The notes below the pieces were generated by a model. It had not been told where the DNA came from, made no database searches, and saw only the letters and a program-made list of their open reading frames with translations. A DNA stretch of 64,000 nucleotides from the NCBI GenBank assembly GCA_000004985.1, contig GG738869.1. The stretch is one strand, 5' to 3'. The first letter of the stretch is position 1. The number at the start of each line of letters is the position of its first letter. Source of the stretch: Naegleria gruberi (Eukaryota). Made by a program: the position numbers and the translations under genes. Below are positions 1,615-61,114 of this stretch, in pieces.

Positions 1615-2728
1615 TTATTGTTGTGGATTCTTGATATCAAATTGAGCCTTGACGTGTCCCTTGTGATTAATAAATGAAACGCTCATGGATGATTTGGTCA
1701 ATTGAACAGCTGTGAATGCAGATTCTTCCAAATAATATTTCAATCCAGGATGAGTTGGATCAATTTCACCCTTATGGACCTTACTTCCACCTCCACTGAC
1801 AATTTGATGCATACAATTATTTCCATTACAATCAAATCCATTCAAATATTGTAAATTGTGATCGTGTCCAGATAAGTAAACATAAAATCCATTCTTTTGA
1901 AGGAATGGTTCCAACTTTTTGGTAATATCAATATTGTCTCCATGTTTACCAGCAGACTTGATTGGATGGTGACCAACAGCAATCTTGAAACTAATTTGGT
2001 TTTCTCTAGAAATACTATCAATAGTTTGTTGCATGAATGCAAGTTGTCTATTGATGTCCTTTTGAAGAACAAGTGCAGTCATATTGACCTTGGAACTGGC
2101 ATAATATGATTCAATCATTGGACTTGTATCAAAAACAGCAAGTAGAATATTCAAATTACCAACCGAAATCACTCTAGCATAATATTCATTAGGCAAATAA
2201 AACTTGCTCGAATGTTTCTCTCCATTATTATACCTCAAACTGTACTCCACTTCAGCATGAGCATACCCATAATATTCATGATTTCCTAATGCATTATAAA
2301 ATTGGTTACCAAAAGCATGACGAGGTCTATAAACATCTTCAAAACTTGATTGAAATTGTGAATCATGAATTCCAGAAACTCCATTCGGATAGAAATTATC
2401 ACCCACTCCAAGAGAGAAATCACAACTTGGAGCCACACTTGTACACCATTTAGCCATTTGTTGGGCAACCTCAAGCTATTTCCAAATTGGAATTATTATC
2501 CAAATTATTTAATTTATATAAATTTACCTGATTATCACCTCCATTTCTTCCATAATCTCCAATCACTGTAAAATAGGCTACATTTCCATCATCGGATGCT
2601 GATAATACTTTCTTATTTCCAACTCCAACCTTCAAATGAAAGCCTTCAACACCCGAACGGATAAAGTTCAACACGACAACAACAAGCAGAACAACCAAGA
2701 GAAAAAATCTATCAACTTGTTGAGACAT
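1615..2728 (-). CDS. purple acid phosphatase / tartrate-resistant acid phosphatase type 5-like metallophosphoesterase. Exon 1 is 2528-2728, exon 2 is 1615-2475, and the intron 2476-2527 is 52 nt.
   Basis: Exon 1 encodes a signal peptide and the motif FTVIGDYGRNGG. Exon 2 carries GDNFY, GNHEY and GHDHNLQ, which together are the dinuclear-metal phosphoesterase signature of the ACP5/PAP family. The intron reads GTAAAT...AATAG on the minus strand, and the reading frame is continuous after its removal. Confidence 0.8.
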
Positions 2729-2848: not shown

Positions 2849-3433
2849 CTAATTAAAAGCACCTCTGATGAGAATTGGATTTTTGGATGCTTGTTTTCTT
2901 CTTGGACAGGCATACTTGGTAATAATCTTGAATTCATAGGTGTACTCCTTTTTCAAGAGTTTTTTACTCTTTCCAATGTAATGTCCATTAAAGTCAACCT
3001 TCTCATCACAAACTAGTTCAAATTTAGCTCCTGATAATTCATTATTTGAACTGAGAATCATGTCAAATTCCACAACAATTCCATGGGCAATATTTGATGG
3101 ATCAAAAAGTGAAATTTTAGGTCCTGGTTTACCAATATTTAAACATCTGTGAAAATAATTATCAATGTAAACAATTTGATAGGATCCATGATTGGTGGCA
3201 CATGTAGCATTGGTTGGAATGACTGGTTTGCATAGATTTACCATATAATATGATCCTGGAATGTAGTCTGGTACTTGCCATCCCGATTGACCGTTATCGG
3301 ATTGGGACAAGTCAACAATCATTCCATCCTTTTCAATAGAACAATCTTGAGAGTAAACTAAACTAACGGAAGAAGAAAGAATAGCACAGAGCAGTAATAA
3401 ACAGCAAAAAGTAACAGTTGAAGTGAAATGCAT
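2849..3433 (-). CDS. secreted protein with a mannose-6-phosphate-receptor-homology (MRH) lectin-like domain
   Basis: N-terminal signal peptide. Conserved Cys spacing and the C-terminal motif YTYEFKIITKYACP are typical of MRH domains (OS-9, glucosidase II beta, GNPTG). 194 aa. Confidence 0.45.
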   Translation of the reverse strand: MHFTSTVTFCCLLLLCAILSSSVSLVYSQDCSIEKDGMIVDLSQSDNGQSGWQVPDYIPGSYYMVNLCKPVIPTNATCATNHGSYQIVYIDNYFHRCLNIGKPGPKISLFDPSNIAHGIVVEFDMILSSNNELSGAKFELVCDEKVDFNGHYIGKSKKLLKKEYTYEFKIITKYACPRRKQASKNPILIRGAFN

Positions 3434-3673: not shown

Positions 3674-6600
3674 ATGTCGCGCCCGATTTCTTTCTCAAAT
3701 CGACACAATGTTCGAGGGGTGGCGATGTTGTATGTTGGTGGCTTATTGATGATGTTGATGATGATGATAGTTTTGGGATTTGGTGTTCAGGAGGGATCGT
3801 GTACGGTGTATGAAGTGAGAAATTCGACTTCCTTGTGGGACATTGTTCATGGAAATAAGTTGGTACCTGGTGATGAAGGTAAGTATCATGATTTATTCAT
3901 CATTCAATTTGGATGATATGGTGATTAGTGGTATTGAGAGAGGGCAATTATACATGCTATTATCAAAGTACTTGGTATAGAAATATTGTATTGAAAGGTC
4001 TTACTAATGCTCCTATTACTATTAGAGCTGCCAGTGGAGAGAAGGTTTTGGTCGAAGGAGATTTGAATGCTAGTCAAAATTTGTTGAATTTTAATGTAGA
4101 AAACTTTATTCTGAAAGGTATTGAATTTAGATATGGTGATAGAGGACTGAGATTTTTTGGTGCTAGCAATGTTCTATTGGAAGATTTACACATTCATGAT
4201 ACCAGTGATGTTGGTATGGCAATGAACGATCGTGATGTTACCTATTCTAATGTTACAATTAGGGAAGCTTTTGTGTTTTTACTTTATTAGAAACTGGATG
4301 AAAACAGACACGTTCAAATCCACCACACTCATGGTACTGGAGAGTGCTTCTACTTGGGCTGTAATGATGATGCTTGTCGTTTGATTAATTCACTTATTGA
4401 ATATAATTATTGCCATCATACATGTTGCGTTCAAGGTGATGGTATCGAAGTGAAGAGAGGTTCCTACAATAATGTTATTCGCCACAATGTCATTCACGAT
4501 ACTCACTATCCTGGAATTATTGTGTACGGTGCCAACAATGGTATTCCAAATATTATTGATTCCAACATTATTTGGAACGCTGGTGATAATGGTATTCAAA
4601 TTGCTGCTAATACCATTGCTCGTAACAATATTGTACTCAACTCAAAGATGAATGGTATTAGTATTCAACCTAATCAAGGCAATCCAACAGCTGTTATTTT
4701 GGAACATAACACTGTCATTGGAGCTCTCAGTGGGTCGTGTCTCTCTACTTATAGTACATACATTGGTTCAGAGTTTGTGATTGCAAACAATGCATTCTAT
4801 TGTGAGAATGCTAGTGCAATTTCTGAAACCAATGCAAACTCCAAAACTGTCTATCTTTCTAATGTTGTGAAAGGAAAAGTTACAAGCCAATATGCCAGCA
4901 ATATTATTTATGGAACTGGGTTGAGGGATTTTACCAGTACTGCTTCTCTTCCTTTCAACACTTATCCTTCCCTTGGTTCGTCCTTACTTGGAGTTTCAAC
5001 CTACATGGCTAATACATCAACTCCTTTGGATTTTGATGGTCGTGACAGAAGTGCAGCCTCACGTATTGATGCAGGTGCTTATCAACGGGTTGCTCAAAAC
5101 TCACCAACATGGATTCCAGTAGCTGGTTTCAAAGATGGTTGGAGCAGTCCTGCTCAATCAACTTCTCCAAAGCGTGTAAAGCCTGTTCCTTCAGATAATG
5201 CACATTACAATAGAACAACTTTTATCATCACTCCACAAAATGGTTCTTCATTATTTGACTTGATGAGCACTTTACAACCTGGAGACACCTTATTGGTACG
5301 AGCAGGCACTTATCCTGTTAAATTTGCCAATGCTTGGTTTACCAAGATTGTCCTCTCTGGATCTCCATCAAATCCAATTACTGTTTCTGCATGGCCTGGT
5401 GAAAGAGTTGTTTTGTATGGTGATCCATACGGATCTCAAAACATAATCAACTTGGAAGTTATGTACTTTGTCTTCAGAGGTTTTGAAATGGTTTATGGTT
5501 CCAGAGGAATTAGACTTCATGAATCCTCTCATTCAATCTTTGAAGACTTGAACGTGCACCACACTTGGGCAAATGCAATCTCTGCAAATGATAAGGGTGT
5601 TCATTATCAAAATATTACATTCAGAAATAATCGGGTTGCTCATACTCATGGTACTGGAGAATGTTTTTATTTGGGTTGCCAAGATGCTGCTTGTATCTTT
5701 TCAGATTCTCTCATTGAAGGAAATCTATGTGAATACACGTGTTGTGAACAAGGTGATGGTATTGAACTAAAGCATGGTTCTTACAATAACATAGTTAGAA
5801 ATAACGTTGTTCACGACACACCATATCCAGGTATTACCACTTATACTACTGGGGGCAATGCTCCAAATATTATTGAGGGAAATTTCATTTTTAATACTGG
5901 TGATAATGGTATTCAATGTACATCAGGTCAAATTATTCGAAACAATATCATTGTCAATGCAAGCATCAATGGTATTGATATTCACGATGATGGAGCTGTT
6001 TCTGATCTTACCATCACTCATAACACTGTAATTAACGCCAAAATTGCTTGTTTTTCTGCTGGTGGTTTACAAACAGCTTCAAACGTAATTATTGCAAACA
6101 ATGCTTTGTTTTGTAAGTTTCATACTTTAAATGATTAACTAATCATTATAGGTGACAACTCTCAATACGGATATTATGAGAGATATTTATCTGATAAGAA
6201 GACTAGCACTTTTTATTCGGCAAGAAACTATTATTCAGGAAAAACAAATGGTGTTGGCATTGATTTGGTAAAGGTCAATAACAGTTCTCATGACATACTG
6301 TTGGGTATTGATTTACTGAATGCCTATCCAACATCGATCAGTAACCTTATTGGAGCGGGTAGCCTAAAGTATTCAACACCTTTGGATTTTAATGGAAATT
6401 CCAGATCATCAACTCCAGATGTTGGCGCTTATCAATATTCAACCCCTTCAAATCCAGGTTGGGTTGCTAAAGGATGGTTCAAGAATGGATATAACTCAGT
6501 ATCCGTGTCAGGAAATTGGGAATATCCAAAGAATGTCCTTATTCCTCAAGACGACGATTCTTATATTGGAATGGTTTATCACATCACAGAAGCCAATTAT

Positions 6601-8077
6601 TCATCTTCAAACTGCAAGTATGAAAATATATGGAAAACCATGGCATTGTTGAAACCTGGAGATACTATGATTTTCCATTCAGGAACATTACTAACCCAAG
6701 TCTGTGGGCATGGTTCTTTCTACAGAAGATTAACGGTTATTGGTAGCCCAAATCGTCCAGTGGTAATTAAGGTTGCGGATGGAGAAAGTGTAACAATTCA
6801 AGGCGACATCGGTCAGTCACAAAATATCATGGATGTTGCTTTTTACAATGTCCTTTTTAAAGGATTCAATATGAAATATGGATCCAGAGGTCAGTATCAT
6901 TTTTGAGAAATATTAACTTTTGACAGGTCTTAGAGTCTATGAAGCCCAAAACACAACATTTGAAGGATTGGAAATTTCTGAAACAGCAGATGTTGCTTTC
7001 GCAGGAAACGATCTAAGAGGAGATTACAACAATGTAACTATCAGAAGAGTTAAAGTTCACCACACGCATGGTACAGGGGAATGTTTCTATTTGGGTTGTA
7101 ATTTTGGTGAGTGCATTTGGAGAAATTCCATCATTGAGTACAACCATTGTTCGTAAGTTTCATTGTTTTTTTGAGATACTAAGAAAAAATCATTTAGACA
7201 CACTTGTTGTGAACAAGGTGATGGTATAGAATTAAAGGCTGGTTCGTATGGAAATATTATTCGCCACAATGTAATTCATGATACTATCTATCCTGGAATC
7301 ACATTGTACACTCCAATGGAGGGCAAGCCACCAAATGTTGTCTATGGTAATATTGTGTGGAATACTCAAGATAATGGAATACAAGTAACAGGAAATACAA
7401 TTCTCATGAATAATATTGTAATGAATGCCAAATATTATGGAATTTCAATTCAAGAAAATCAACAGAGGGTGAACGGACTTGGTAACATTGAAAATGTTGC
7501 AATTCTCCACAATACAGTTGTTGGGGTAAGCTCTAAAACCAGTGGAGCTTGTTTTGCCACTAGTGGAACAAATTCTGGAAAAGGAAACATTGTAATTGCT
7601 GGAAATGCCTTTTACTGTTCAGATGCCAAGGCAACACGTGAAGTTAATGTTCATCCAAACACTAAGTATGGTATTAATGTTGTTAGCGGAACCAGTACAA
7701 TGTCAGGTACCTTAATTGGCGACTTGGTGTCAGACTTTTTGGATGTTTCTTCAATTCCTTACAATTTGTATCCAAGAAAGGGAGGGAAATTATATGGCTC
7801 ATCAAATCTCACAATTTACGATCTAGTTTCAAAAGATTTCAATGGTCTTGTTAGATCTTCACAAAGAATGGATGTTGGTGCCCTTCAATATATTGAAGGA
7901 AAAGATAACAACCCAGGTTGGATTCCAAAGGATGAATTCAAACCATTTACTGATCTTTCGCCTCTTGCAAGTCAGTCCACCAATACCACAATGTCCGATG
8001 CCCAAATAATTCTCAATAATGTAACTCTCAACTATTTTTTGGTCATTCTAATGGTATTTGTTTCAATTTGCTTATAA
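3674..8077 (+). CDS. large secreted, probably GPI-anchored, right-handed parallel beta-helix (PbH1, pectin-lyase fold) repeat protein with three tandem modules. Proposed exons are 3674-3878, 3929-4274, 4308-6112, 6152-6889, 6927-7152 and 7198-8077.
   Basis: N-terminal signal anchor and C-terminal hydrophobic tail. PbH1-type repeats such as NNVIRHNVIHDT and NGIQIAANTI recur. A motif HHTHGTGECFYLGC...EYN.C..TCC.QGDGIE.K.GSYNN recurs three times (about 4310, 5650, 7050). Six track ORFs join through GT..AG introns of 50, 33 (candidate), 39, 37 and 45 nt with phases preserved. The 33-nt candidate contains the in-frame TAG at 4288-4290. Confidence 0.7.
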
Positions 8078-8131: not shown

Positions 8132-9535
8132 ATGTCATCACAACTTCTCTACTCGATGTATTGCATTTTGGAGGGCAACTTTCCAATGGATAAACAACAT
8201 ATTCAGGACTTCAACCAAAGAAAATCACCCGATTGGATGAATCTTTCTAAACCGTTAATTAGCAAGACCAATATTTGGCATCAGGCCTCAAGTTTTCATC
8301 AATTACAAATTAAATCAACACTCTGTGGATCAACGTGCACCGAATTAATTTCAGTGCTGGATTTTGAGGATACTTCATGTTGTTCTCTCTTTTTAATATT
8401 CGGAGGAAGATCTTCCGAAATCAGGGAAGGTACTTGCATGGTAAATGATGAAAAACAATTGTATTTGATAGAGATGGTTGATAATGAATTTTCCACATGT
8501 TTGAGCTATGTCTATGATGAAAATGTGTTGAATGAAAAACAAATTCCACAGGCACGATACGGCCATTCTAGTGTCTTTGATAAAGATAGAAAGTTAATGT
8601 ATGTCTTTGGTGGGATGGCTGGAGGGAAGTGTCATAATGATTTGGCAATTTTTGATGTAGTGACAAGTTTGTGGACAATTGTTAATTTTGCAAATGTTGG
8701 ATGCTTGATTCTTCCACAAGAAAGATATGGACATAATTGTGCCATTTACAAAAATTGGATGTTTGTTTGTGGAGGAAGGGATAGCTCAGGAAATATTTTA
8801 GGAGGAATTCAAGCTATGGATTTGGATCGTTGTTTATGGATGAATATTCAAGTGGAATCATTGAGTGGAAGAAGTTTCTTTACTATGGACGTGATTGAGA
8901 GAAGAGATGATAAAATTGAGATGATCATTGCTGGAGGAATTAGAAAAGATCTCAACGAAAAACCACTACAAAGACTTACCATCACTGTTGGGAATGAAAG
9001 ATCTATACACTGCTCAGTTAATCCAATAGAAAATCAAGAACTGACTTGGGATAAGTACGGACATTGCTCTGTATTCAAAAATCAAACCTTGCTATTGGTA
9101 GGAGGTCAGAATCAAGATCACTCTCTAGATTGTAATAGCTTGGAATTTAGTATTGAGAGTGAAACCTTCTCCTCATTCTCATACTTTCTACAGCCATCTA
9201 CACATTGCAGTTTGTCGTTCCTGAACATTTCGCAAGATCTTGATGTCAATCAGAATGATGGATTCTATTTTGCTTCATTACTTTATGACAGCACTTTGAA
9301 TTGCTATGTTGTTGGGGGAAATTCGATAGCTACTTATAGAACTACACCATCAATAGATGTTTCAGAAAACGTTATCAGTGATACGTGGGTAAAGATTGTC
9401 AGCTTTTTGAATTACGATGACTTGAAGAAATTATGTCTAGTTTCCAAACGATTCTACACAATATTTACTGCAGATGTGATTTGGAAGCCAATTCTGTTTA
9501 AATTCTTTGCAGAAAAATTGATAATACCCGTATAA
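8132..9535 (+). CDS. kelch-repeat beta-propeller protein with a C-terminal F-box-like motif
   Basis: Repeated kelch-type blades such as ARYGHSSVF...MYVFGG and ERYGHNCAIY...MFVCGG. C-terminal WVKIVSFLNYDDLKKLCLVSKRFYTIF resembles an F-box. The gene may continue into the 9607 ORF through a candidate 32-nt intron at 9530-9561. Confidence 0.55.
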   Translation: MSSQLLYSMYCILEGNFPMDKQHIQDFNQRKSPDWMNLSKPLISKTNIWHQASSFHQLQIKSTLCGSTCTELISVLDFEDTSCCSLFLIFGGRSSEIREGTCMVNDEKQLYLIEMVDNEFSTCLSYVYDENVLNEKQIPQARYGHSSVFDKDRKLMYVFGGMAGGKCHNDLAIFDVVTSLWTIVNFANVGCLILPQERYGHNCAIYKNWMFVCGGRDSSGNILGGIQAMDLDRCLWMNIQVESLSGRSFFTMDVIERRDDKIEMIIAGGIRKDLNEKPLQRLTITVGNERSIHCSVNPIENQELTWDKYGHCSVFKNQTLLLVGGQNQDHSLDCNSLEFSIESETFSSFSYFLQPSTHCSLSFLNISQDLDVNQNDGFYFASLLYDSTLNCYVVGGNSIATYRTTPSIDVSENVISDTWVKIVSFLNYDDLKKLCLVSKRFYTIFTADVIWKPILFKFFAEKLIIPV

Positions 9536-19437: not shown

Positions 19438-19563
19438 GGTCTGGAAGTGTGTAATTTTATTGGTCATTTCCATTTGGATACTTGTTTGGTTTTCTTGTTA
19501 TCTTCTTATAAGTGGTTGCTGAATGAATCCTTTTTCAAGAAACAACAACACAATAGCAATTTC

Positions 19564-22500
19564 ATGGGCAAGATTAATGATGGTGAATGTGTTAATGCTT
19601 TCAATTATGTTAGAGATTTGGAACGTGCAAGAGAACAGTTTGATTCATCGTATTCGGAAAGAACAACTTCTATTGGTGATGATGAAATTCAACATGTTCT
19701 TGATGGACATATGGTCAATTGGATTTTATTACTCCAAAGAGTGTTAAAGATGAGACCAGAATTGCAGAGGCAGATAAAGGAGGATGGAGGTGCTGATTGG
19801 TTGGTTCGTGCAGTGTCTTTAAAAACACATCACCCAGTAATTCATAATATGGCAAGTGCTAAGAAGTTTCTCCAATTAATGAAGAAATTTACAACTTTAC
19901 AAGGTCAACCGTATGCAGAAATGAATTTTGATGAAAAATTTGAAATGCTCAAGGTTGTGACAAGAACATTTCTTGTTACAATGAATGGTTTAGAGCAAGT
20001 CCACAAATGGTTTTTGGATGGTAATCAGGATTTATCTGTGAATCAACTAGAGAATGATAGAGATCACTTTCGTATAAGAATAGTTGAAATTTGCATTAGA
20101 AATTCAACAAGCTTACAAGGACTTGCAGGAGACTTATACTCAGACAATAGTGATCCAAGAGCAATTGTCAAACTCAGAAGTTCACCGAAAGGAAAATACT
20201 CAAAGAGTCGTTATAGATTATATTTTGGTGTTAACACAACCTTGACTGTATTATTTTCCTTTCCAAGAATGGGATTGACATCTCAATTATTTCTTTCAGA
20301 AAATTCAGATTTGGAAAGTTTAAAGGATTTGAAAACTGTTGCAGGAAATTATTGGGGAGAAGAAACAGTTCTCAAGATTAAGCAAGATTTTTGTAATAGC
20401 ATCAATAATGGTAAAAAGCCAACAGTTTCAAAGCAAGATTTTTCAAAATGCAAACATTTGGAAAGAATTTCACAAGAATTTAGAGCTGCTCGAGTTTTGA
20501 AAAGTTATCAAGATTCTCCAATTACAATTGCCGGTTATTCATTTCATCAATTATGTCAAAATACCAGTGGAATGCATTCGTATAAGTATACTTATTATTG
20601 TGGAGATTTGGCTGATGAATTGCCATTGGGAGTGGAAGATGTGAAGGAGTTTTTTATTCCTAGTCATCTCAATCCAGATTTGTACAAACCAGAAAATCAA
20701 TTGAAATTAACAGTTCGTTTATCGCTCTTAAATACTCCAATATCTCCTACGATTAATATTTCAGAATATCAAGTTATTGAAGATGTTGGTCTTTTCACAG
20801 ATGGTTGTGGTTTCATTTCTCCTGATTTAGCAAGAGAAATTTATAGAAAAATTAAACAGGCAGAATCTAGAGAGAAAGTTCACGTATTTGAGAATGCACA
20901 ATACATGGTTGATGTACAGATGATTTATCAAGATTCTGATCCAGTTGAGGATGATATGGATGATAATGTTCCTTCAGCATTTCAGATTCGTTTTAGAGGA
21001 GCAAAAGGCATGCTCCTACAAAATCCAAATGTGAAAGGAATTGTATTAAGAGAATCTATGGTTAAATTCAACGTAGATTTAGATGAAGATCTCGATGAGG
21101 AAGACGAAAGTCTTTCGAATATCCATGTAGTCGGTTATTCAGAACCATCTAATTTTGCATTCGCCAACTCAACAATTTTGTACATGATGAGTGGATGTGT
21201 TGATGGAGGTGAGAAATTTGAGGGAATAATTATGAATATGTGGAAGGATTATGTTAATGACATTTTAAAAACCTATTCTAATGAAGATACTTCCCAATTG
21301 ATGAAGAAATATTTCAAAGAAGGCGATTTTCATGCCTTAAACATTTTCGGATTGACCAAAGATGTTGCACTCGCTTTCCTTGCAGGACCATTCAGAACTC
21401 AATTGTTGAATCTTAAACTCCCTATTCAAAATGCTCGGAGAGTTTACGGAGTTTGTGATCCACTCGAAGTGTTAGAACCAGATGAAGTTTTTGTTAGAAT
21501 TAGAATGGAAGATGGCACTTTGAAAACCTTGGAAGGAACTATTGCCATCACTAAAGAGCCATGTCTTCATAGAGGTGATTTACGTTTGCTGAAAGCTAAG
21601 AAAATAGAGAGTTTAGAATATCTTTCAGAAGTAATTGTTTTTCCTATTAAGGGAGAAAAAAGACCTATTCCTAACATGATTACAGGAAGTGATTTGGATG
21701 GTGACAAATATCTTGTCATTTGGGATGAACCTCTTGTTTCATCTTTCGTCCAACAATTCGAACCTGGAAACTTTGATGAAGAAATTGAAGGAGAAAAACG
21801 TAATTTCGAACCAGATGTTTTTAAGGACTGGATAGGATTGAGACATTCCTATGTAGATTCGTATGGATATGAATGGAGTAAAGGTGAGAATTGGAAAACC
21901 ATGCAAAGACTTTCAGATATTGTAAATATGGCTGTCGATGCACCTAAAAAGGGGAAAACATTCAAGGCAGGTGCAATGGAGAAGGATATTGTTAGAAACT
22001 TTCCGAAATATCCTCATTTCCATAATTCAAAGACAAAGGAAGCTGTTAGAGTGAGTACTTCAGTTGTTGGGAAAATGTATGATTTTGCAATTGATAGAGT
22101 TACTGAGCGTTTTAAATTTCAGCCAGTTACTGACAAGCGTCAAACATCAACTGACGACAAGGAATATTTATTCTTGGATAATTTATACCAAGTATTGCGA
22201 AGGAATAAGGATATTTCAGTCAATCAGTTTTTGAACTTTATTTGGAAACATTTTTCAAACATTTTATTGAGAAGCACTACAATTCAATTTGCTTCTGAGT
22301 TTTTAGATTCGTTTTGGAGATTCTTATGTATGTTGACAATACGAAAAGAGAAAACTATTATATTGTGTTGTCTTAACACAACTGTTGATAAGGTTAATAA
22401 CAGTTCTATGAATGCAATTATTAGCGAAATGACAAAGAGCGATAATTTAGTACTAATGGTTCAAGGAATATCCGAAACTAAACTCAAATTCAAAGAAGAT

Positions 22501-24555
22501 TTGCAAAATGACAAGATACATGACTCCTCTGCATGTTCTTTATTCAAATTTTCCAACTCGAATGTTGAATTTATTCATTTCCTTTTTTATGAAATATTCT
22601 TTGATGCAGCTTCAAGAATCCAAATTGATCTAGGGTACAATTTGCTTACCAATTATACCCTATCTCAAACCCTATTTGAAAATATTGTAGAACCATCGAC
22701 TTTGAATCCAGTTCTCTTTAAAAAACCAAAAACTATCTTTGAAATAATTTACAAAGCTTGCAATGGCAAAGACTCAGATAGAAAGAAGCATGCATTGTAC
22801 ATTGTTGGACTTTTATTCAAGAATGGTATAATTTTACCTAGAAACTATGATTTGGCTATCAAATGCTTTAAACTGGCACTTTCAAAAGAGAACAATATCC
22901 GAATTGGATTTATACCATATTTGTATAATAGTGAAAAACGACCTGTAATGAAAGAATTGAAGATTCTGGCAAAGGCAGGATATGCTGAAGCACAATACAA
23001 CTTGGGAAGATTAAGCTATTTTGATGGCGATCAATGGTCTGCTTTGGAATGGTTGAAAAAAGCTGCTTTTCAATGTGTTCTTAATATTGAAAACAGAGGA
23101 TTGGATAAGAAGAACACTCTTTACTTTTTATCAAATCTCTACAGGGATGGTACTATTGTTGAGTGGAATAATGATAGATATCTTCAATTATTGGAAGAAT
23201 CTGCTAAATTAGGATCTATTGATGCAATGTACAAGATTGGAAGAAGGATGGAGTTGACCAAACAGTATTCATTTGCTTGTTTTTGGTATGAGAGAGCAGC
23301 CTATGAGGGAATATTAGAAAATTATTTGCAAGGTTATGGAATGAAAAACTCTTGTCGATTCAGCTTGGAAATTGATGAATATGGAATTGATTCAATGAAT
23401 AGATTGCCACCTCTTCCATTGCAAAATGATCTACAAGTTGAAATTCAACTTGATATTTCAATAGAAAGTCCTCTCTTGAAGAAAAATATGCTATTTGTGC
23501 AGAGTTCAAATCCAGTTTTCCAAACTTTTTGTAATGATGGAACAATTATTCCACCAAACGAAATTGAAGAATTTACCAAGATTCTCCCAAGTTCTAATAT
23601 ATTACAAAAGAAATATGAAAGGAAATATGAAAGCATCCATGACTCAGCAAAGAGAACTATGGAAAAAGCAGAAAAAATGCTGAAATTGGCTAACCAAACT
23701 ATTGCTCATATAGATAGAATTTTAAACAAGGGAAAGAGTTCAGATTCGAAAGAATCTCCTCTTGAAAATGAGAGTAAAGAAGAAGTAGAAGAAATATCTA
23801 CTGAACAAATATCAACTGAACAAGAAGATACAAAAGAATCTATTATTCCACACACAAAATGGAAACTGATTTATAGAGGAAGTAAGGATGGATACGAATC
23901 TAATGATTTCCATAGAAAGTGTGATGATAAAGGTTCCACTTTCATCATAGTCAAGACTAAAGAGGACGAAATATTTGGAGGATATACAACCCAAACTTGG
24001 AAAATTCCCCAAGCAAATATCTTTGGACACACACAACGAAACGATGAAAATGCATTCTTATTCATTCGTTCCAAGAGTCGCAAATATTTTAAACTTCCAA
24101 TCACAAATCAACCAAGTATTGATTGTACTCACGCAAGATTAATTGACTTTCTTGATTTTACCATACCAAATAATTGTGATATAATTCCAGGACATACTAA
24201 TTTCGGAATGAATTATCAACTTCCAAAATGGTCTAAGGGAAATGGATTCAGTTTTAGTGAATCTCTTGATAATAGAAGAAGTTTTTATGTGGAAGAAATT
24301 GAAGTTTATTCATTAATAGATTCTGAAGATGAAAATAGTCCACTCATGTCTGGATCAATCAATCTTTCTCAGATAAGAACAGATGGTCCTATGTTTAATT
24401 GGGATGATTATTTGAGCTACGTTAGAGCACGAAATAGTGATCCTTATGGTACAAGAGCATACACAGAAAGTGTAAGACAAGCAAGAATTTCAAGTGATGA
24501 AGGAATTGAAAGATTGAAAGACAAGTTGCGTCTAATGGGAGTTTTCAAGGAATAG
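19564..24555 (+). CDS. cellular RNA-dependent RNA polymerase (RDR/QDE-1/EGO-1 family) fused to C-terminal Sel1-like repeats and a TLDc domain
   Basis: Uninterrupted 1702-codon ORF (19447-24555); the first ATG is at 19564. The catalytic core has AFQIRFRGAKGMLLQNP and the cellular-RdRP signature GSDLDGDKYLVIWDE (DLDGD, about 21690). Residues around 22900-23300 carry Sel1-type repeats (AEAQYNLGRLSYF..., AMYKIGRRMEL...). The C-terminus (about 23850-24300) has WKLIYRGSKDGYESNDFHRKCDDKGSTFIIVKTKEDEIFGGYTTQTWK, typical of TLDc. Confidence 0.8.
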   Translation: MGKINDGECVNAFNYVRDLERAREQFDSSYSERTTSIGDDEIQHVLDGHMVNWILLLQRVLKMRPELQRQIKEDGGADWLVRAVSLKTHHPVIHNMASAKKFLQLMKKFTTLQGQPYAEMNFDEKFEMLKVVTRTFLVTMNGLEQVHKWFLDGNQDLSVNQLENDRDHFRIRIVEICIRNSTSLQGLAGDLYSDNSDPRAIVKLRSSPKGKYSKSRYRLYFGVNTTLTVLFSFPRMGLTSQLFLSENSDLESLKDLKTVAGNYWGEETVLKIKQDFCNSINNGKKPTVSKQDFSKCKHLERISQEFRAARVLKSYQDSPITIAGYSFHQLCQNTSGMHSYKYTYYCGDLADELPLGVEDVKEFFIPSHLNPDLYKPENQLKLTVRLSLLNTPISPTINISEYQVIEDVGLFTDGCGFISPDLAREIYRKIKQAESREKVHVFENAQYMVDVQMIYQDSDPVEDDMDDNVPSAFQIRFRGAKGMLLQNPNVKGIVLRESMVKFNVDLDEDLDEEDESLSNIHVVGYSEPSNFAFANSTILYMMSGCVDGGEKFEGIIMNMWKDYVNDILKTYSNEDTSQLMKKYFKEGDFHALNIFGLTKDVALAFLAGPFRTQLLNLKLPIQNARRVYGVCDPLEVLEPDEVFVRIRMEDGTLKTLEGTIAITKEPCLHRGDLRLLKAKKIESLEYLSEVIVFPIKGEKRPIPNMITGSDLDGDKYLVIWDEPLVSSFVQQFEPGNFDEEIEGEKRNFEPDVFKDWIGLRHSYVDSYGYEWSKGENWKTMQRLSDIVNMAVDAPKKGKTFKAGAMEKDIVRNFPKYPHFHNSKTKEAVRVSTSVVGKMYDFAIDRVTERFKFQPVTDKRQTSTDDKEYLFLDNLYQVLRRNKDISVNQFLNFIWKHFSNILLRSTTIQFASEFLDSFWRFLCMLTIRKEKTIILCCLNTTVDKVNNSSMNAIISEMTKSDNLVLMVQGISETKLKFKEDLQNDKIHDSSACSLFKFSNSNVEFIHFLFYEIFFDAASRIQIDLGYNLLTNYTLSQTLFENIVEPSTLNPVLFKKPKTIFEIIYKACNGKDSDRKKHALYIVGLLFKNGIILPRNYDLAIKCFKLALSKENNIRIGFIPYLYNSEKRPVMKELKILAKAGYAEAQYNLGRLSYFDGDQWSALEWLKKAAFQCVLNIENRGLDKKNTLYFLSNLYRDGTIVEWNNDRYLQLLEESAKLGSIDAMYKIGRRMELTKQYSFACFWYERAAYEGILENYLQGYGMKNSCRFSLEIDEYGIDSMNRLPPLPLQNDLQVEIQLDISIESPLLKKNMLFVQSSNPVFQTFCNDGTIIPPNEIEEFTKILPSSNILQKKYERKYESIHDSAKRTMEKAEKMLKLANQTIAHIDRILNKGKSSDSKESPLENESKEEVEEISTEQISTEQEDTKESIIPHTKWKLIYRGSKDGYESNDFHRKCDDKGSTFIIVKTKEDEIFGGYTTQTWKIPQANIFGHTQRNDENAFLFIRSKSRKYFKLPITNQPSIDCTHARLIDFLDFTIPNNCDIIPGHTNFGMNYQLPKWSKGNGFSFSESLDNRRSFYVEEIEVYSLIDSEDENSPLMSGSINLSQIRTDGPMFNWDDYLSYVRARNSDPYGTRAYTESVRQARISSDEGIERLKDKLRLMGVFKE

Positions 24556-57673: not shown

Positions 57674-60600
57674 TTACTCGTATTGCTTCTTATCTTCTAA
57701 CGGAGTGTAGGCATATTTTTGGCTGAGCAAAGCTTTAAGAATTTCATCAGATTGACTCAAAATGTCCTTTGGTAAGTACATGATTTCTTGTGTCACTCTA
57801 GTGGCAATGACACGTTCAGTTGAGGTTGGTTTGAATTGCTCGTTCAATTGTTTAATCTCAGATGTAGCAAGTGCCTTACGGGCAGCTCTAACAACTCTAG
57901 ATCTAAATCTACGCATGAGAACCTTTCTGATGAAGATCTTCTTGGCCTTCTTACCCCTGATGGCAGTTTCCTTATTCTTCTTGGCAATCTTCAAGATCTT
58001 CTTGATGGTTCTCTTGACCTTCTTGCCATTCTTCAAAACTTGTTTGAGAACAATCTTCCAAACAGCATTCTTAACTCTCTTATTGAGTTTGATAACTTGA
58101 ACCTTCCATGTGGCAGAAGTTCTAGTGTAACGAATGGTTTGGCCAGCAAGATCCTTATCAATATCAGAAACAGAGGTTGGGATCTTGGTATAGATAATCT
58201 TGGTGAAGACATTGTCCTTCAAATAAGAGGAGACCAATTCATTGATAAATGATGGTCTCAAACCACATCTCTTAGTACCAGCAACATAGGCACATACAGC
58301 TGGAGCATGAGTATTGTAACCAAGTTGTTTGATGAGCTTGACAATGGCCTTGATGTGATTATCGAGAGAAGTGAGACAGATGGTTTGTTCCTTAACTTGT
58401 TCTTCGAGGAGTTTCTTTCTCTTTCTAGCCATTTCGTCAGCCTTCTTAAACATGGAAGCAGAAATCTTCTTCTTGATAACCAATTGCTTCAAGATAATTC
58501 TGAGATTGACCAAAGCTCTTCTGTAAATGGTGATCTTCTTTCTCAAAACAACAATATAATTGTATCTCTTTTCAATGGCAATCTTGACTTCTTCCTTAGT
58601 TTGGAAGTTATTCTTGACCTTATCGAAGAATGCTGGATCATACCAAACAGTGTAAGGAATGTAAACTCTCTTTGGAACATGTTTAACAATTGGAATGGTA
58701 ATCTTCTTTGATTTACAACACTTGCATTGGACACAATTCTTACATTGGCAGTATTTACAACCATAATTATCAACAGCAACCTTTTCAAAGTATTGAGAAC
58801 CTCCACATCTGTCATTACAATCTGGAATTGGTGGACAGACAATAATTGGTTCTCCCTTGCATTTACATTGATCACAACCATTAGCATCCTTAACCATTTC
58901 AAACATGTCAGAACCGCAGATAGCAGAACAGTTTGGTAAAAGATCTGGACAAGTTGGTTTGATACATCTACATCTAGTACAGTTGTAGTTATCACGATAA
59001 GTGACATACTTCAAAGTACCACAGGTATCTCTACAATTGACATCATCAGCACAAACTGGAGGAGTATTACAGGTACACTTGGTACATCCTCTTTCATCAA
59101 CAGTTGTTTCCTTAATACCAGCACTTCCACAAACATCTCCACAATTGGTTGGTGGACACTTGAATTCAAGACATTTGCATTGTTTACAACCATTAGCATT
59201 GTAAGACACTTCAGCAACACCGAAAGTACATTGAGCAATACAATCTGGTTCTGGTTGTGGGCAAGTTGGTGGAGCAATACATCTGCACATATCACATCCA
59301 GAATCATCGGTAATCATTTCATAAGGAAGAGTTCCACATTGAGCTTCACAAATTGGGAGAGTATCTGGACAAGTTGGCTTATAACATTTGCATCTAGTAC
59401 AATTGTAATTGTCACGATAAGTAGCATACTTCAAAGTACCACAGGTATCTCTACAATTGACATCTTCAGTACAAACTGGAGGAGTATTACAGGTACACTT
59501 GGTACAGCCCTTTTCATCAACAGTAGTTTCCTTAATACCAATAGAACCACAAACATCAGCACAGCTAGTTGGTGGACATTTGAATTCAAGACATTTGCAT
59601 TGTTTACACTTGTTGCTGTCATAGGAAACTTCAGCAACACCAAAAGTACATTGAGCAATACAGTCTGGTTCTGGTTGTGGGCAAGCAGTGTCATTACATT
59701 TACATGATTGACATCCCTTAGAGTCAGTAGTGTAATAGTAACCATTTGGACAATTAAGAGAGGTACAATCTGGTGGGGTAGTTGGACAAACTGGTGGTTG
59801 ATTACAGACACATTGACGGCAACCAGTATCAGTATTGTACTTGTATTGATATCCATATGGACATTGAACAGCATCACAATCAACAGCAGGGCATTGAGTA
59901 CACTTACAAACTGGGCATCCATTGGAGTCAGAATCATAGGTGTGACTAAGCTTATTACCACAAACTTGTTGACAATCTGGAGGACTTGGTGGGCACTTGT
60001 TACACTTGCACAAGTTACATTCAGAGCTAGGATCGAAAGCATAAGAACCACCATAAACACAGCTGCTATTACACTTTTCAATATTAACAACTGGACATCT
60101 CAAACATTCACAGGTTGGACAACGAGCACCATCACTTGATGTTTGTGTAGTATTGACATAACCGTATGGACAGTTAGCTTGACAGTAAGAAATTGGAGCT
60201 TCAGGACAAGTATAACAGACACACTTTGGACAACCATATTGATCATTCTTCAAAGAACCACCGTATGGACAAGTGACAGTATTACATTTGGAAGCATCAT
60301 CAGGTGTACAAGCTGGTGGAGGATTACATGAACAAGCATCACAACCATTGGCATCCTTACCAATAATATAACCATATGGGCAGACAGATTCACATTTTGG
60401 AGTTGGTGGACAAGAACAATTACAAACTTGACAACCGTCACCACGTCCTGAATCAGAAAGAGTGAATCCATACAAACAGGAAGCAGCACAATTAAGGGTT
60501 GGACAAGTCTTACAAGAACATTGATTACATCCAGTTGTTTGATTCAAAACAATATCATATCCCAAAACTGAGTTACATTGATCACAACTTGTGGCATTAA

Positions 60601-61114
60601 CACAAGGTGGTGGAATAACAATTGGTGGTTTACATGTACAATTAGTAATGCAACCAGAAATTCCTCCAACAGTTCCATAAGTAATATCGTATTGTCTGCT
60701 ATCACAGGTACCAATCAATGGACAAGCTTCAGTTTCAGTTTTACATTTACAGATACATTGATCACATCCAACAGAGTCCTTTGAAATAGATTCTAATAAA
60801 AGCCCTTTGTTGGCACATTCTGCAGTACAATCCTTTGATCCTGTTGGACAATTATTTGGACAATCTGGACAAACACATTTTCCGTTAACGACTTGAACTT
60901 TTCCACAAAGACAAACCACTCCTGGACATTCTTCAAATCCTGGTTCTCCATCATTAGTAATGGCACCATCAAAATACATTGGATTTTCAGAACCAGTTGA
61001 TTGTTGGAGAGATGAATGTGTCATAAAGGACACAATCAACAAGACAACCAGCAATAAAGCTGATATCAAAATTGGTTGTTGCTTTCTCATATTATTACTC
61101 AATCGCACACCCAA
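57674..61114 (-). CDS. secreted cysteine-rich repeat protein with about 20 antistasin/TIL-like Cys modules and a highly cationic, helix-prone C-terminal region of about 330 aa
   Basis: 1146-aa uninterrupted ORF with a signal peptide. It has dozens of modules such as CPYGYxYxxDxxGCxxCxC. The last 340 residues (57674 to about 58700) are K/R-rich amphipathic sequence such as KKVKRTIKKILKIAKKNKETAIRGKKAKKIFIRKV. The plus-strand ORFs at 57762-60784 are antisense artefacts. Confidence 0.65.
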   Translation of the reverse strand: MGVRLSNNMRKQQPILISALLLVVLLIVSFMTHSSLQQSTGSENPMYFDGAITNDGEPGFEECPGVVCLCGKVQVVNGKCVCPDCPNNCPTGSKDCTAECANKGLLLESISKDSVGCDQCICKCKTETEACPLIGTCDSRQYDITYGTVGGISGCITNCTCKPPIVIPPPCVNATSCDQCNSVLGYDIVLNQTTGCNQCSCKTCPTLNCAASCLYGFTLSDSGRGDGCQVCNCSCPPTPKCESVCPYGYIIGKDANGCDACSCNPPPACTPDDASKCNTVTCPYGGSLKNDQYGCPKCVCYTCPEAPISYCQANCPYGYVNTTQTSSDGARCPTCECLRCPVVNIEKCNSSCVYGGSYAFDPSSECNLCKCNKCPPSPPDCQQVCGNKLSHTYDSDSNGCPVCKCTQCPAVDCDAVQCPYGYQYKYNTDTGCRQCVCNQPPVCPTTPPDCTSLNCPNGYYYTTDSKGCQSCKCNDTACPQPEPDCIAQCTFGVAEVSYDSNKCKQCKCLEFKCPPTSCADVCGSIGIKETTVDEKGCTKCTCNTPPVCTEDVNCRDTCGTLKYATYRDNYNCTRCKCYKPTCPDTLPICEAQCGTLPYEMITDDSGCDMCRCIAPPTCPQPEPDCIAQCTFGVAEVSYNANGCKQCKCLEFKCPPTNCGDVCGSAGIKETTVDERGCTKCTCNTPPVCADDVNCRDTCGTLKYVTYRDNYNCTRCRCIKPTCPDLLPNCSAICGSDMFEMVKDANGCDQCKCKGEPIIVCPPIPDCNDRCGGSQYFEKVAVDNYGCKYCQCKNCVQCKCCKSKKITIPIVKHVPKRVYIPYTVWYDPAFFDKVKNNFQTKEEVKIAIEKRYNYIVVLRKKITIYRRALVNLRIILKQLVIKKKISASMFKKADEMARKRKKLLEEQVKEQTICLTSLDNHIKAIVKLIKQLGYNTHAPAVCAYVAGTKRCGLRPSFINELVSSYLKDNVFTKIIYTKIPTSVSDIDKDLAGQTIRYTRTSATWKVQVIKLNKRVKNAVWKIVLKQVLKNGKKVKRTIKKILKIAKKNKETAIRGKKAKKIFIRKVLMRRFRSRVVRAARKALATSEIKQLNEQFKPTSTERVIATRVTQEIMYLPKDILSQSDEILKALLSQKYAYTPLEDKKQYE
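58890..59740. repeat. two tandem copies of an intragenic duplication of about 420 bp (about 90% nucleotide identity) inside the cysteine-rich gene
   Basis: 58960-59160 versus 59380-59580 and 59161-59290 versus 59581-59710 align base for base with few substitutions. The protein segment CPQPEPDCIAQCTFGVAEVSY...CTRCKCYKPTCPD is repeated as CPQPEPDCIAQCTFGVAEVSYNANGC...CTRCRCIKPTCPD. Confidence 0.7.

Follow-up and report, generated by a model that had tools for sequence, protein, structure and literature searches.

A tandem three-module beta-helix protein encoded in Naegleria gruberi is related at profile level to PL31 polysaccharide lyases

PsAly of Paenibacillus sp. FPU-7 is an alginate (polymannuronate) lyase of polysaccharide lyase family PL31, in which Glu181, Glu216 and Asp219 make up the first cation site (PMC6796002). 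In the mechanism proposed for this enzyme, Lys221 is the base that abstracts H-5, Tyr184 is the acid that protonates O-4, and the cation neutralises the carboxylate; the mutants Y184F and K221A had no detectable activity (PMC6796002). Other members of PL31 are endo-beta-1,4-glucuronan lyases (PMC6442616), and among eukaryotes the brown alga Saccharina japonica has a beta-helix lyase, SjAly (PL41), in which the Tyr, the Lys and the first cation site of PsAly are retained (PMC6796002). Here we describe a gene of Naegleria gruberi that lies at nucleotides 3674-8077 (plus strand) of a 64,000-nucleotide stretch of contig GG738869.1 (assembly GCA_000004985.1), which is called the window below. Profile comparisons identify each of its three tandem modules as a distant homologue of the PL31 lyases, from a large, uncharacterised and mostly bacterial sister family. 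We consider that this is a genuine nuclear gene of N. gruberi for a secreted, probably glycosylphosphatidylinositol (GPI)-anchored, three-module PL31-related protein with presumed lyase activity, and we give this reading a probability of roughly 0.6.

The modules comprise about 440 amino acids apiece, and a hidden Markov model (HMM) of the module scored 740-797 bits on each of them. The Pfam Beta_helix model (PF13229) matched six stretches of the protein with E=1.5e-34 (119 bits against a cutoff of 25.9). A preliminary description of this DNA, made from its letters, had proposed three tandem beta-helix modules, and both results bear this out. The choice-of-anchor Q model (NCBIfam NF041518) matched residues 845-877 in module 2 with 27.5 bits against a cutoff of 25, and the motif DFNG..R...D.GAY was found in all three modules. 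Module 2 was modelled by AlphaFold2 as a right-handed beta-helix (predicted local distance difference test, pLDDT, 87; predicted template modelling score 0.90), with the inter-module linker, residues 422-438, at a pLDDT below 50. The modules thus have the three-stranded right-handed beta-helix fold.

When a family profile of 124 sequences was searched against all PDB sequences, the top match, far ahead of the rest, was PsAly (6kfn_A; E=7.9e-22, profile positions 25-223). Alignment of the family with PsAly by hhalign gave a probability of 98.85% and E=4e-17, and an HMM made from Heterolobosea only matched PsAly with E=1e-11. The individual N. gruberi modules are 23-25% identical to PsAly over about 200 amino acids. 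PsAly is likewise a right-handed beta-helix and has an N-terminal cap as in the amoeba modules, but it is a 33-kDa single domain that has neither the choice-of-anchor Q cap nor any of the motif cysteines described below. Chains of PL6 matched profile positions 20-121 only, which is the N-terminal cap, and left the catalytic rungs unmatched; the Pfam Chondroitinas_B match on the homologues was confined to the first ~100 residues, and the PF22842 (Pel9A-like) and PF14592 matches on the homologues were weak. Neither PL6 (chondroitinase B and alginate lyases) nor PL9 (Pel9A) could be aligned across the catalytic rungs, and the catalytic residues of these families are Lys/Arg or Lys/water. One further PDB entry, the uncharacterised 'parallel beta-helix repeat protein' 9rx2 (E=1.5e-7), could be aligned across these rungs as well, but the D, E and K of the family are N, Y and R there, and it was rejected as a model for the site.

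Each module carries one copy of the motif H.T.G.GECFYLGC....C......IE.N.C..TCC.QGDGIE.K.GSY.N..R.NV.HDT.YPGI, in which the first His is replaced by Ala in copy 2. In what follows, residues such as E148, Y151, C149 and H199 are numbered by their position in the family or module. Both HMMER and HH alignments paired G-F-G-E181-G-I-Y184 of PsAly with G-T-G-E148-x-x-Y151 of the family, and E216-H-I-D219-I-K221 of PsAly with D180-G-I-E183-L-K185 of the family. The cation-ligand positions are therefore all acidic, with the Glu and Asp identities swapped at the last two (D180 and E183 vs Glu216 and Asp219). Among 129 bacterial sequences, E148, Y151, E183 and K185 were conserved in 100% and D180 in 99%, and all five were kept in 9 of 9 heterolobosean modules. 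In the bacterial homologues, conservation of the whole non-Cys core of the motif (E, Y, D, E, K, R, H, D) reaches 95-100%. Because the cation-binding and catalytic residues of PsAly align within the motif, the alignments identify the motif as a lyase-like active-site region that carries added amoeba cysteines, and not as an insert. The preliminary description was thus right that the motif is repeated three times, but the insert it took the motif for coincides with the rungs of the PsAly catalytic site. Its suggestion of a glycan-binding or glycan-degrading protein is most likely correct on the degrading side, with the motif aligned to the active site of a PL31 lyase.

The same acidic residues might instead serve a sugar-active enzyme that is not a lyase, either a uronan C5-epimerase of the AlgE or AlgG type or a glycoside hydrolase. 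Epimerases and lyases share the abstraction of the C5 proton, which lends the epimerase some attraction. However, the only database-significant match over the active-site rungs that shares the five residues is the PsAly lyase, PL6 and chondroitinase B being matched in the cap alone. AlgE4 matched with E=0.0016 only and on a different segment, and the NCBIfam model of the mannuronan C5-epimerase AlgG scored 9.6 bits against a cutoff of 700. The epimerase motif is YG(F/I)DPH(D/E), whereas the E..Y and D..E.K of the family match the PsAly lyase site. We regard a non-lyase activity as quite unlikely.

The bacterial family is large. An exhaustive search of 1.84 billion cluster representatives with the module profile found 684 of them at E<=1e-30 and 3953 at E<=1e-10, and a separate profile search, confined to the 8000 candidates with the most words in common with the query, found more than 528 proteins at E<=1e-10. 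Nearly all matches listed are single-module proteins of 430-540 amino acids. Those with names are called 'right-handed parallel beta-helix repeat-containing protein' and come from Myxococcales, Polyangiaceae, Deltaproteobacteria, Woeseiaceae and Gammaproteobacteria; many carry the MYXO-CTERM label, and dockerin, GH115_C, PhoD, Kelch or fn3 domains are added in some. Bacterial members such as P0021 and P0124 have the same module from end to end (35-42% identity to the amoeba modules), and they share with it the invariant residues, the LGC....C loop and the C-terminal DFNG..R...D.GAY / NPGW cap. They differ from the amoeba protein in having one module instead of three, and they lack its introns and its eukaryotic signal and GPI-type signals. 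Among the best 150 representatives, three matched stretches were found in the Willaertia protein only. P0208 and P0233, with two matched stretches each, were considered as tandem-module members and rejected, since each consists of one family module and an unrelated beta-helix. Tandem multiplication of the module thus looks confined to amoebae.

The cysteines of the motif have two histories. C154 and C159, in the LGC....C loop, are present in 97% of bacterial sequences and are lost jointly where they are missing, which fits an ancestral loop disulfide between them. C149, C171, C175 and C176 are eukaryote-specific; bacteria hold at these positions G (97%), I/V (99%), T/S and V (86%), respectively, and often have a Cys at 205 instead. 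The homologue of Acanthamoeba castellanii has C149 and C171 but not C175 and C176. Because it holds the first two without the other two, we propose the pairs C149-C171 and C175-C176, the latter a vicinal disulfide, as the pairing that this distribution suggests. Another Cys pair (..AC.. and ..YC..) co-varies across the family, and module 3 has its own N-terminal Cys pair; a disulfide C283-C305 is predicted as well, and in total the modules have 10, 9 and 10 Cys. Four of the motif cysteines being eukaryote-specific and co-varying in pairs, the pattern points more to additional disulfides than to a metal cluster.

The preliminary description had seen in this motif a metal-binding cluster or a disulfide-knot insert, which would define the function of the protein. 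The composition does invite such a reading: six Cys and up to five His lie within 36 residues, in three strict repeats, and the His ladder 141, 172 and 199 is 96-100% conserved in bacteria. But four of the six Cys are lacking in the bacterial family and so do not belong to an ancestral functional core, His141 and His172 are not constant in amoeba modules, some of which have A, Y, E or S instead, and the segment aligns rung for rung with PsAly with no insertion. Furthermore, paired extracellular Cys are normally oxidised, and the number of Cys is even in modules 1 and 3. We hold a His/Cys cluster to be very improbable. If a metal is bound, it is more likely a cation of the Ca2+/Mg2+ type held by Glu, Asp and Glu, as in PsAly.

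The gene was assembled from six open reading frame (ORF) pieces and five short AT-rich introns (37-50 nt), and the spliced translation is a single frame of 1395 codons whose sole stop is the terminal TAA at 8075-8077. Four of the five introns have canonical boundaries, starting with GTAAGT or GTCAGT and ending with TAG or CAG. Each of the five junctions restores colinearity with the homologues of Willaertia magna; because these proteins have no introns there, the gene model is supported by homology, beyond the splice consensus. That the six ORFs make one protein of about 1400 amino acids, as had been proposed, is thereby confirmed. The GC content of the gene matches that of the genome, and tblastn found no additional module copies elsewhere in the window.

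Intron 2 is the exception among the five, with a donor (AG/GGAAGC) that is one substitution away from the consensus AG/GTAAGC and has no GT. Its excision (45 nt) alone gives YSNVTIRHVQIHHTHG (...YSNVTIR/HVQIHHTHG...), which matches YDN(I/V)TIRHVQIH of Willaertia. In-frame GT-AG alternatives of 18 and 39 nt were rejected; they are too short, or they lose the conserved VTIR strand and add KLDENR. The GG may reflect an error in base calling, the use of a non-canonical donor or a disabling mutation that is very recent. A search with the full-length protein matched no protein of N. gruberi, N. fowleri or N. lovaniensis, though all three proteomes were in the database; the SNF2 ORF of the window was 100% identical to an N. 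gruberi predicted protein there. The locus thus appears to be unannotated in the N. gruberi protein set, perhaps because the GG donor defeats gene finders that need GT-AG, and the homologue may be missing or unannotated in N. fowleri and N. lovaniensis.

It could be argued that the allele in this assembly became a pseudogene very recently, a GT to GG change at the intron 2 donor blocking splicing so that the protein ends after about 196 amino acids. Retained intron 2 does carry an in-frame TAG, no N. gruberi protein matched the locus, and the strain, NEG-M, is grown axenically, so that loss of the gene would perhaps be tolerated, which is speculative. On the other hand, the remaining ~1200 codons are intact with all catalytic residues conserved, a base-call error or a non-canonical donor explains the data equally well, and gene predictors that need GT-AG would miss the gene for the same reason. 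A pseudogene therefore seems to us rather improbable, and the GG donor raises it as a separate, orthogonal question.

The best full-length matches were two hypothetical proteins of Willaertia magna, ABK040_001621 and ABK040_015021, which are three-module orthologues with the same Cys pattern and the same kind of N- and C-terminal signals. By module, the identity between N. gruberi and Willaertia was 56% (M1-M1), 58-60% (M2-M2) and 53-57% (M3-M3), and neighbor-joining (NJ) bootstrap support was 100% for each module class and 99% for Heterolobosea as a whole. Because the module classes are orthologous between the two genera, these comparisons place the triplication before the Naegleria/Willaertia split; they also indicate that the whole gene was duplicated later in Willaertia, which has two paralogues. 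Within the N. gruberi protein, modules 1 and 3 are the closest (46% identity, against 41-43% for M1-M2 and 40-42% for M2-M3), and in the module tree M1+M3 had 72% support vs 28% for M2+M3. The earlier impression that modules 2 and 3 are closer, as the most recent copies, is therefore not borne out.

Introns of Willaertia lie at other positions than those of N. gruberi. Three introns interrupt the gene for one paralogue (P0001; JBEGDK010000072.1, L005:6001-10279); they follow codons 568, 616 and 676, within module 2, and none of the three coincides with any of the five N. gruberi positions. Since no positions are shared, introns appear to have been gained independently after the split.

Outside Heterolobosea, Acanthamoeba castellanii ACA1_157590 (P0003) has two modules, which group with the heterolobosean modules (77% NJ bootstrap) and share C149 and C171 with them. 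It differs in having neither the CC pair nor the C-terminal hydrophobic tail. In both of its modules E148, Y151 and K185 are kept, and D180 is changed to S, E183 to Q, H199 to Y and D200 to N. The Acanthamoeba homologue could be, to judge from these substitutions, a cation-independent or non-catalytic derivative.

By Kyte-Doolittle hydropathy, the whole N. gruberi protein has only two hydrophobic segments, residues 15-39 and the last 15-19 residues. At the N-terminus, a basic stretch precedes a 23-residue hydrophobic core, and both Willaertia paralogues have classical N-terminal signal peptides at this end. At the C-terminus, a Ser/Thr/Asn-rich stalk leads to S-D-A, all of them small residues, then to a polar spacer and lastly to a hydrophobic tail of 14 residues, NYFLVILMVFVSICL, with which the protein ends. 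This layout of N- and C-terminal signals is common to both Willaertia paralogues and is not found in Acanthamoeba. The protein contains 18 N-glycosylation sequons. We infer that it is probably secreted, N-glycosylatable and GPI-anchored, in agreement with the N-terminal signal, hydrophobic tail and surface anchoring that had been noticed before. Bacterial relatives, too, are often tethered to the cell surface, by a C-terminal sorting signal (MYXO-CTERM in many), which is a functional parallel to the GPI-type tail and not its homologue.

Such a surface protein might be no enzyme but an adhesin or lectin, whose beta-helices merely bind glycans of prey bacteria or of the substratum, like yeast GPI-linked adhesins or pneumococcal PfbA. 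A GPI-like tail, a Ser/Thr-rich stalk and a binding unit in tandem repeat would all suit it, and GPI-anchored beta-helix adhesins are reported in Candida glabrata (PMC8746771). The Acanthamoeba homologue, without two cation ligands, H199 and D200, indicates moreover that the scaffold can be retained when part of the site is lost. Against this, the five PL31 residues together with R194, H199 and D200 are kept in all nine heterolobosean modules, which are only 40-60% identical, and this is difficult to account for unless catalysis is under selection. We therefore think a purely binding role unlikely, and prefer a PL31-related protein with presumed lyase activity.

Several results weigh against this preference. 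A single-sequence phmmer search of the PDB with module 2 found nothing at E<=10, so that the PL31 homology is at the level of profiles only, and the alignment with PsAly ends after the rung of the catalytic Lys, covering the N-terminal ~200 residues only. Lys128, His154, Arg156, Asp250 and Lys252 are invariant in relatives of PsAly (PMC6796002), and the family does not keep this set: opposite His154 and Arg156 it has Leu/Ser/Ala without conservation, and Asp250 and Lys252 fall outside the part that aligns, the residues of the family there being Y203, P204 and Y209. Conversely, the family has invariant residues of its own, R194, H199, D200, Y203 and Y209, that are lacking in PsAly. Because of these residues and the unmatched residues of PsAly, we treat the family as a PL31-related sister group and not as proven PL31. 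In addition, this very family has no characterised enzyme. The genomic context helps little: a Woeseiaceae member (P0124) lies inside an exopolysaccharide cluster with a sugar-nucleotide dehydrogenase, ManC, PMM, a 2-epimerase and a priming transferase, which fits a uronic-acid exopolysaccharide, but the gene neighbourhoods of the four bacterial lineages inspected are not conserved (the other three are unrelated), and the support from context for a uronan substrate therefore comes from one lineage. Finally, the allele that was sequenced may not be correctly expressed, given the GG donor of intron 2.

If the modules act as PsAly is proposed to act, the Glu of G-E-C-F-Y and the Asp and Glu of Q-G-D-G-I-E would hold a divalent cation that neutralises the uronate carboxylate of the substrate, the Lys of I-E-x-K would abstract the C5 proton, and the Tyr of E-x-x-Y would protonate the leaving O4, resulting in beta-elimination. 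The extra cysteines (GEC, NxC and TCC) are additions of the amoebae, which probably make disulfides that stiffen the active-site rungs in the extracellular environment, and the three modules would fold independently, in tandem. As to the role, it is plausible that the protein, on the surface of an amoeba that feeds on bacteria, cleaves the acidic exopolysaccharide of bacterial biofilms or capsules.

The gene is most likely of bacterial origin, as hundreds to thousands of bacterial cluster representatives stand against three amoeba genera; the direction is taken from this distribution. Because its GC content matches the genome, introns have been gained and its signals are eukaryotic, the acquisition would have been long ago. 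The gene would then have been triplicated before Naegleria and Willaertia diverged, with introns gained independently afterwards. The complete proposal, that Heterolobosea have a bacterium-derived lyase that is triplicated, has three active sites, is reinforced by disulfides and anchored by GPI, and cuts biofilm or capsule exopolysaccharides during grazing, is a tentative one that we rate below even odds.

Several neighbouring ORFs were noted. A 467-amino-acid Kelch-repeat ORF (PF24681, E=6e-26) lies at 8132-9535 on the plus strand, 54 nt past the stop codon. Some bacterial homologues are fused to Kelch domains, and the idea that the ORF is what remains of such a fusion was dismissed as coincidence, BLASTP showing no specific similarity (best E=1.6). 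Just upstream, on the opposite strand, is a 194-amino-acid ORF (2849-3433) with a signal-like N-terminus and several Cys but no Pfam match at E<=1e-5 and no exact product on record. A 280-amino-acid metallophosphoesterase ORF (1615-2457, minus strand) has an identical product on metagenome contigs of ~1.8 kb (L006 and L007; ERR1078381, PRJEB11402), so that sample contains N. gruberi-like DNA. Look-ups of exact products of neighbouring ORFs thus led to no N. gruberi annotation of the locus, giving either no record or short metagenome contigs. The window also contains very long ORFs, including 19447-24555 (plus strand) and 57674-61114 (minus strand), with sizes that include 1702 amino acids; ORFs of 1146, 612 and 620 amino acids had no Pfam match at E<=1e-5. 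The coordinates of the gene and its parts are collected in Table 1.

Table 1. Features of the three-module gene, in positions of the window (nt) and of the protein (aa).
Feature	Nucleotides	Strand	Residues	Description
Whole gene	3674..8077	+		start codon to TAA; 6 exons, 1395 aa; colinear with Willaertia P0001 and P0002, 54-56% identity over 98% of length
Exon 1	3674..3878	+		signal peptide/anchor, aa 1-41 (nt 3674-3796); beginning of module 1
Intron 1	3879..3928	+		50 nt, GTAAGT...TAG
Exon 2	3929..4262	+		N-terminal cap and first rungs of module 1
Intron 2	4263..4307	+		45 nt, in-frame, non-canonical donor AG/GGAAGC, internal TAG at 4288-4290
Exon 3	4308..6112	+		remainder of module 1, most of module 2
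Intron 3	6113..6151	+		39 nt, GTAAGT...TAG
Exon 4	6152..6889	+		end of module 2, start of module 3
Intron 4	6890..6926	+		37 nt, GTCAGT...CAG
Exon 5	6927..7152	+		module 3 as far as mid-motif (..EYNHCS)
Intron 5	7153..7197	+		45 nt, GTAAGT...TAG; divides motif copy 3
Exon 6	7198..8077	+		remainder of module 3, Ser/Thr-rich stalk, C-terminal hydrophobic tail
Module 1	3803..5217	+	44-483	E192, Y195, D224, E227, K229 as the PL31-like five residues
Module 2	5218..6570	+	484-921	E631, Y634, D663, E666, K668 as the PL31-like five residues
Module 3	6571..7999	+	922-1370	E1079, Y1082, D1111, E1114, K1116 as the PL31-like five residues
Motif copy 1	4321..4518	+	185-250	active-site rungs and six Cys
Motif copy 2	5638..5835	+	624-689	in module 2
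Motif copy 3	7058..7300	+	1072-1137	broken by intron 5
Candidate GPI-attachment signal	7994..8074	+		S-D-A (27-25 residues from the end), polar spacer, tail NYFLVILMVFVSICL; read from sequence and hydropathy

The fold and the probable chemistry described here are already known. What is new is the link between the family and PL31, its presence in Heterolobosea and Acanthamoeba, the triplication, the lineage-specific cysteines and the apparent gap in the N. gruberi annotation, which is worth fixing. A literature search found no paper that links Naegleria or Willaertia to polysaccharide lyases. If our reading is true, this would be the first polysaccharide lyase described in Heterolobosea, and it would found a new PL31-related family of uncharacterised bacterial members, giving a probable function and catalytic residues to a large bacterial beta-helix family. 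It would also be a clear case of a bacterial-type gene domesticated in a eukaryote, through intron gain, internal triplication, the addition of disulfides and the replacement of bacterial sorting signals (such as MYXO-CTERM) by a signal sequence and GPI-type signals. Should the modules be active, they would provide a biochemical handle on how free-living amoebae handle the exopolysaccharide matrices of bacteria.

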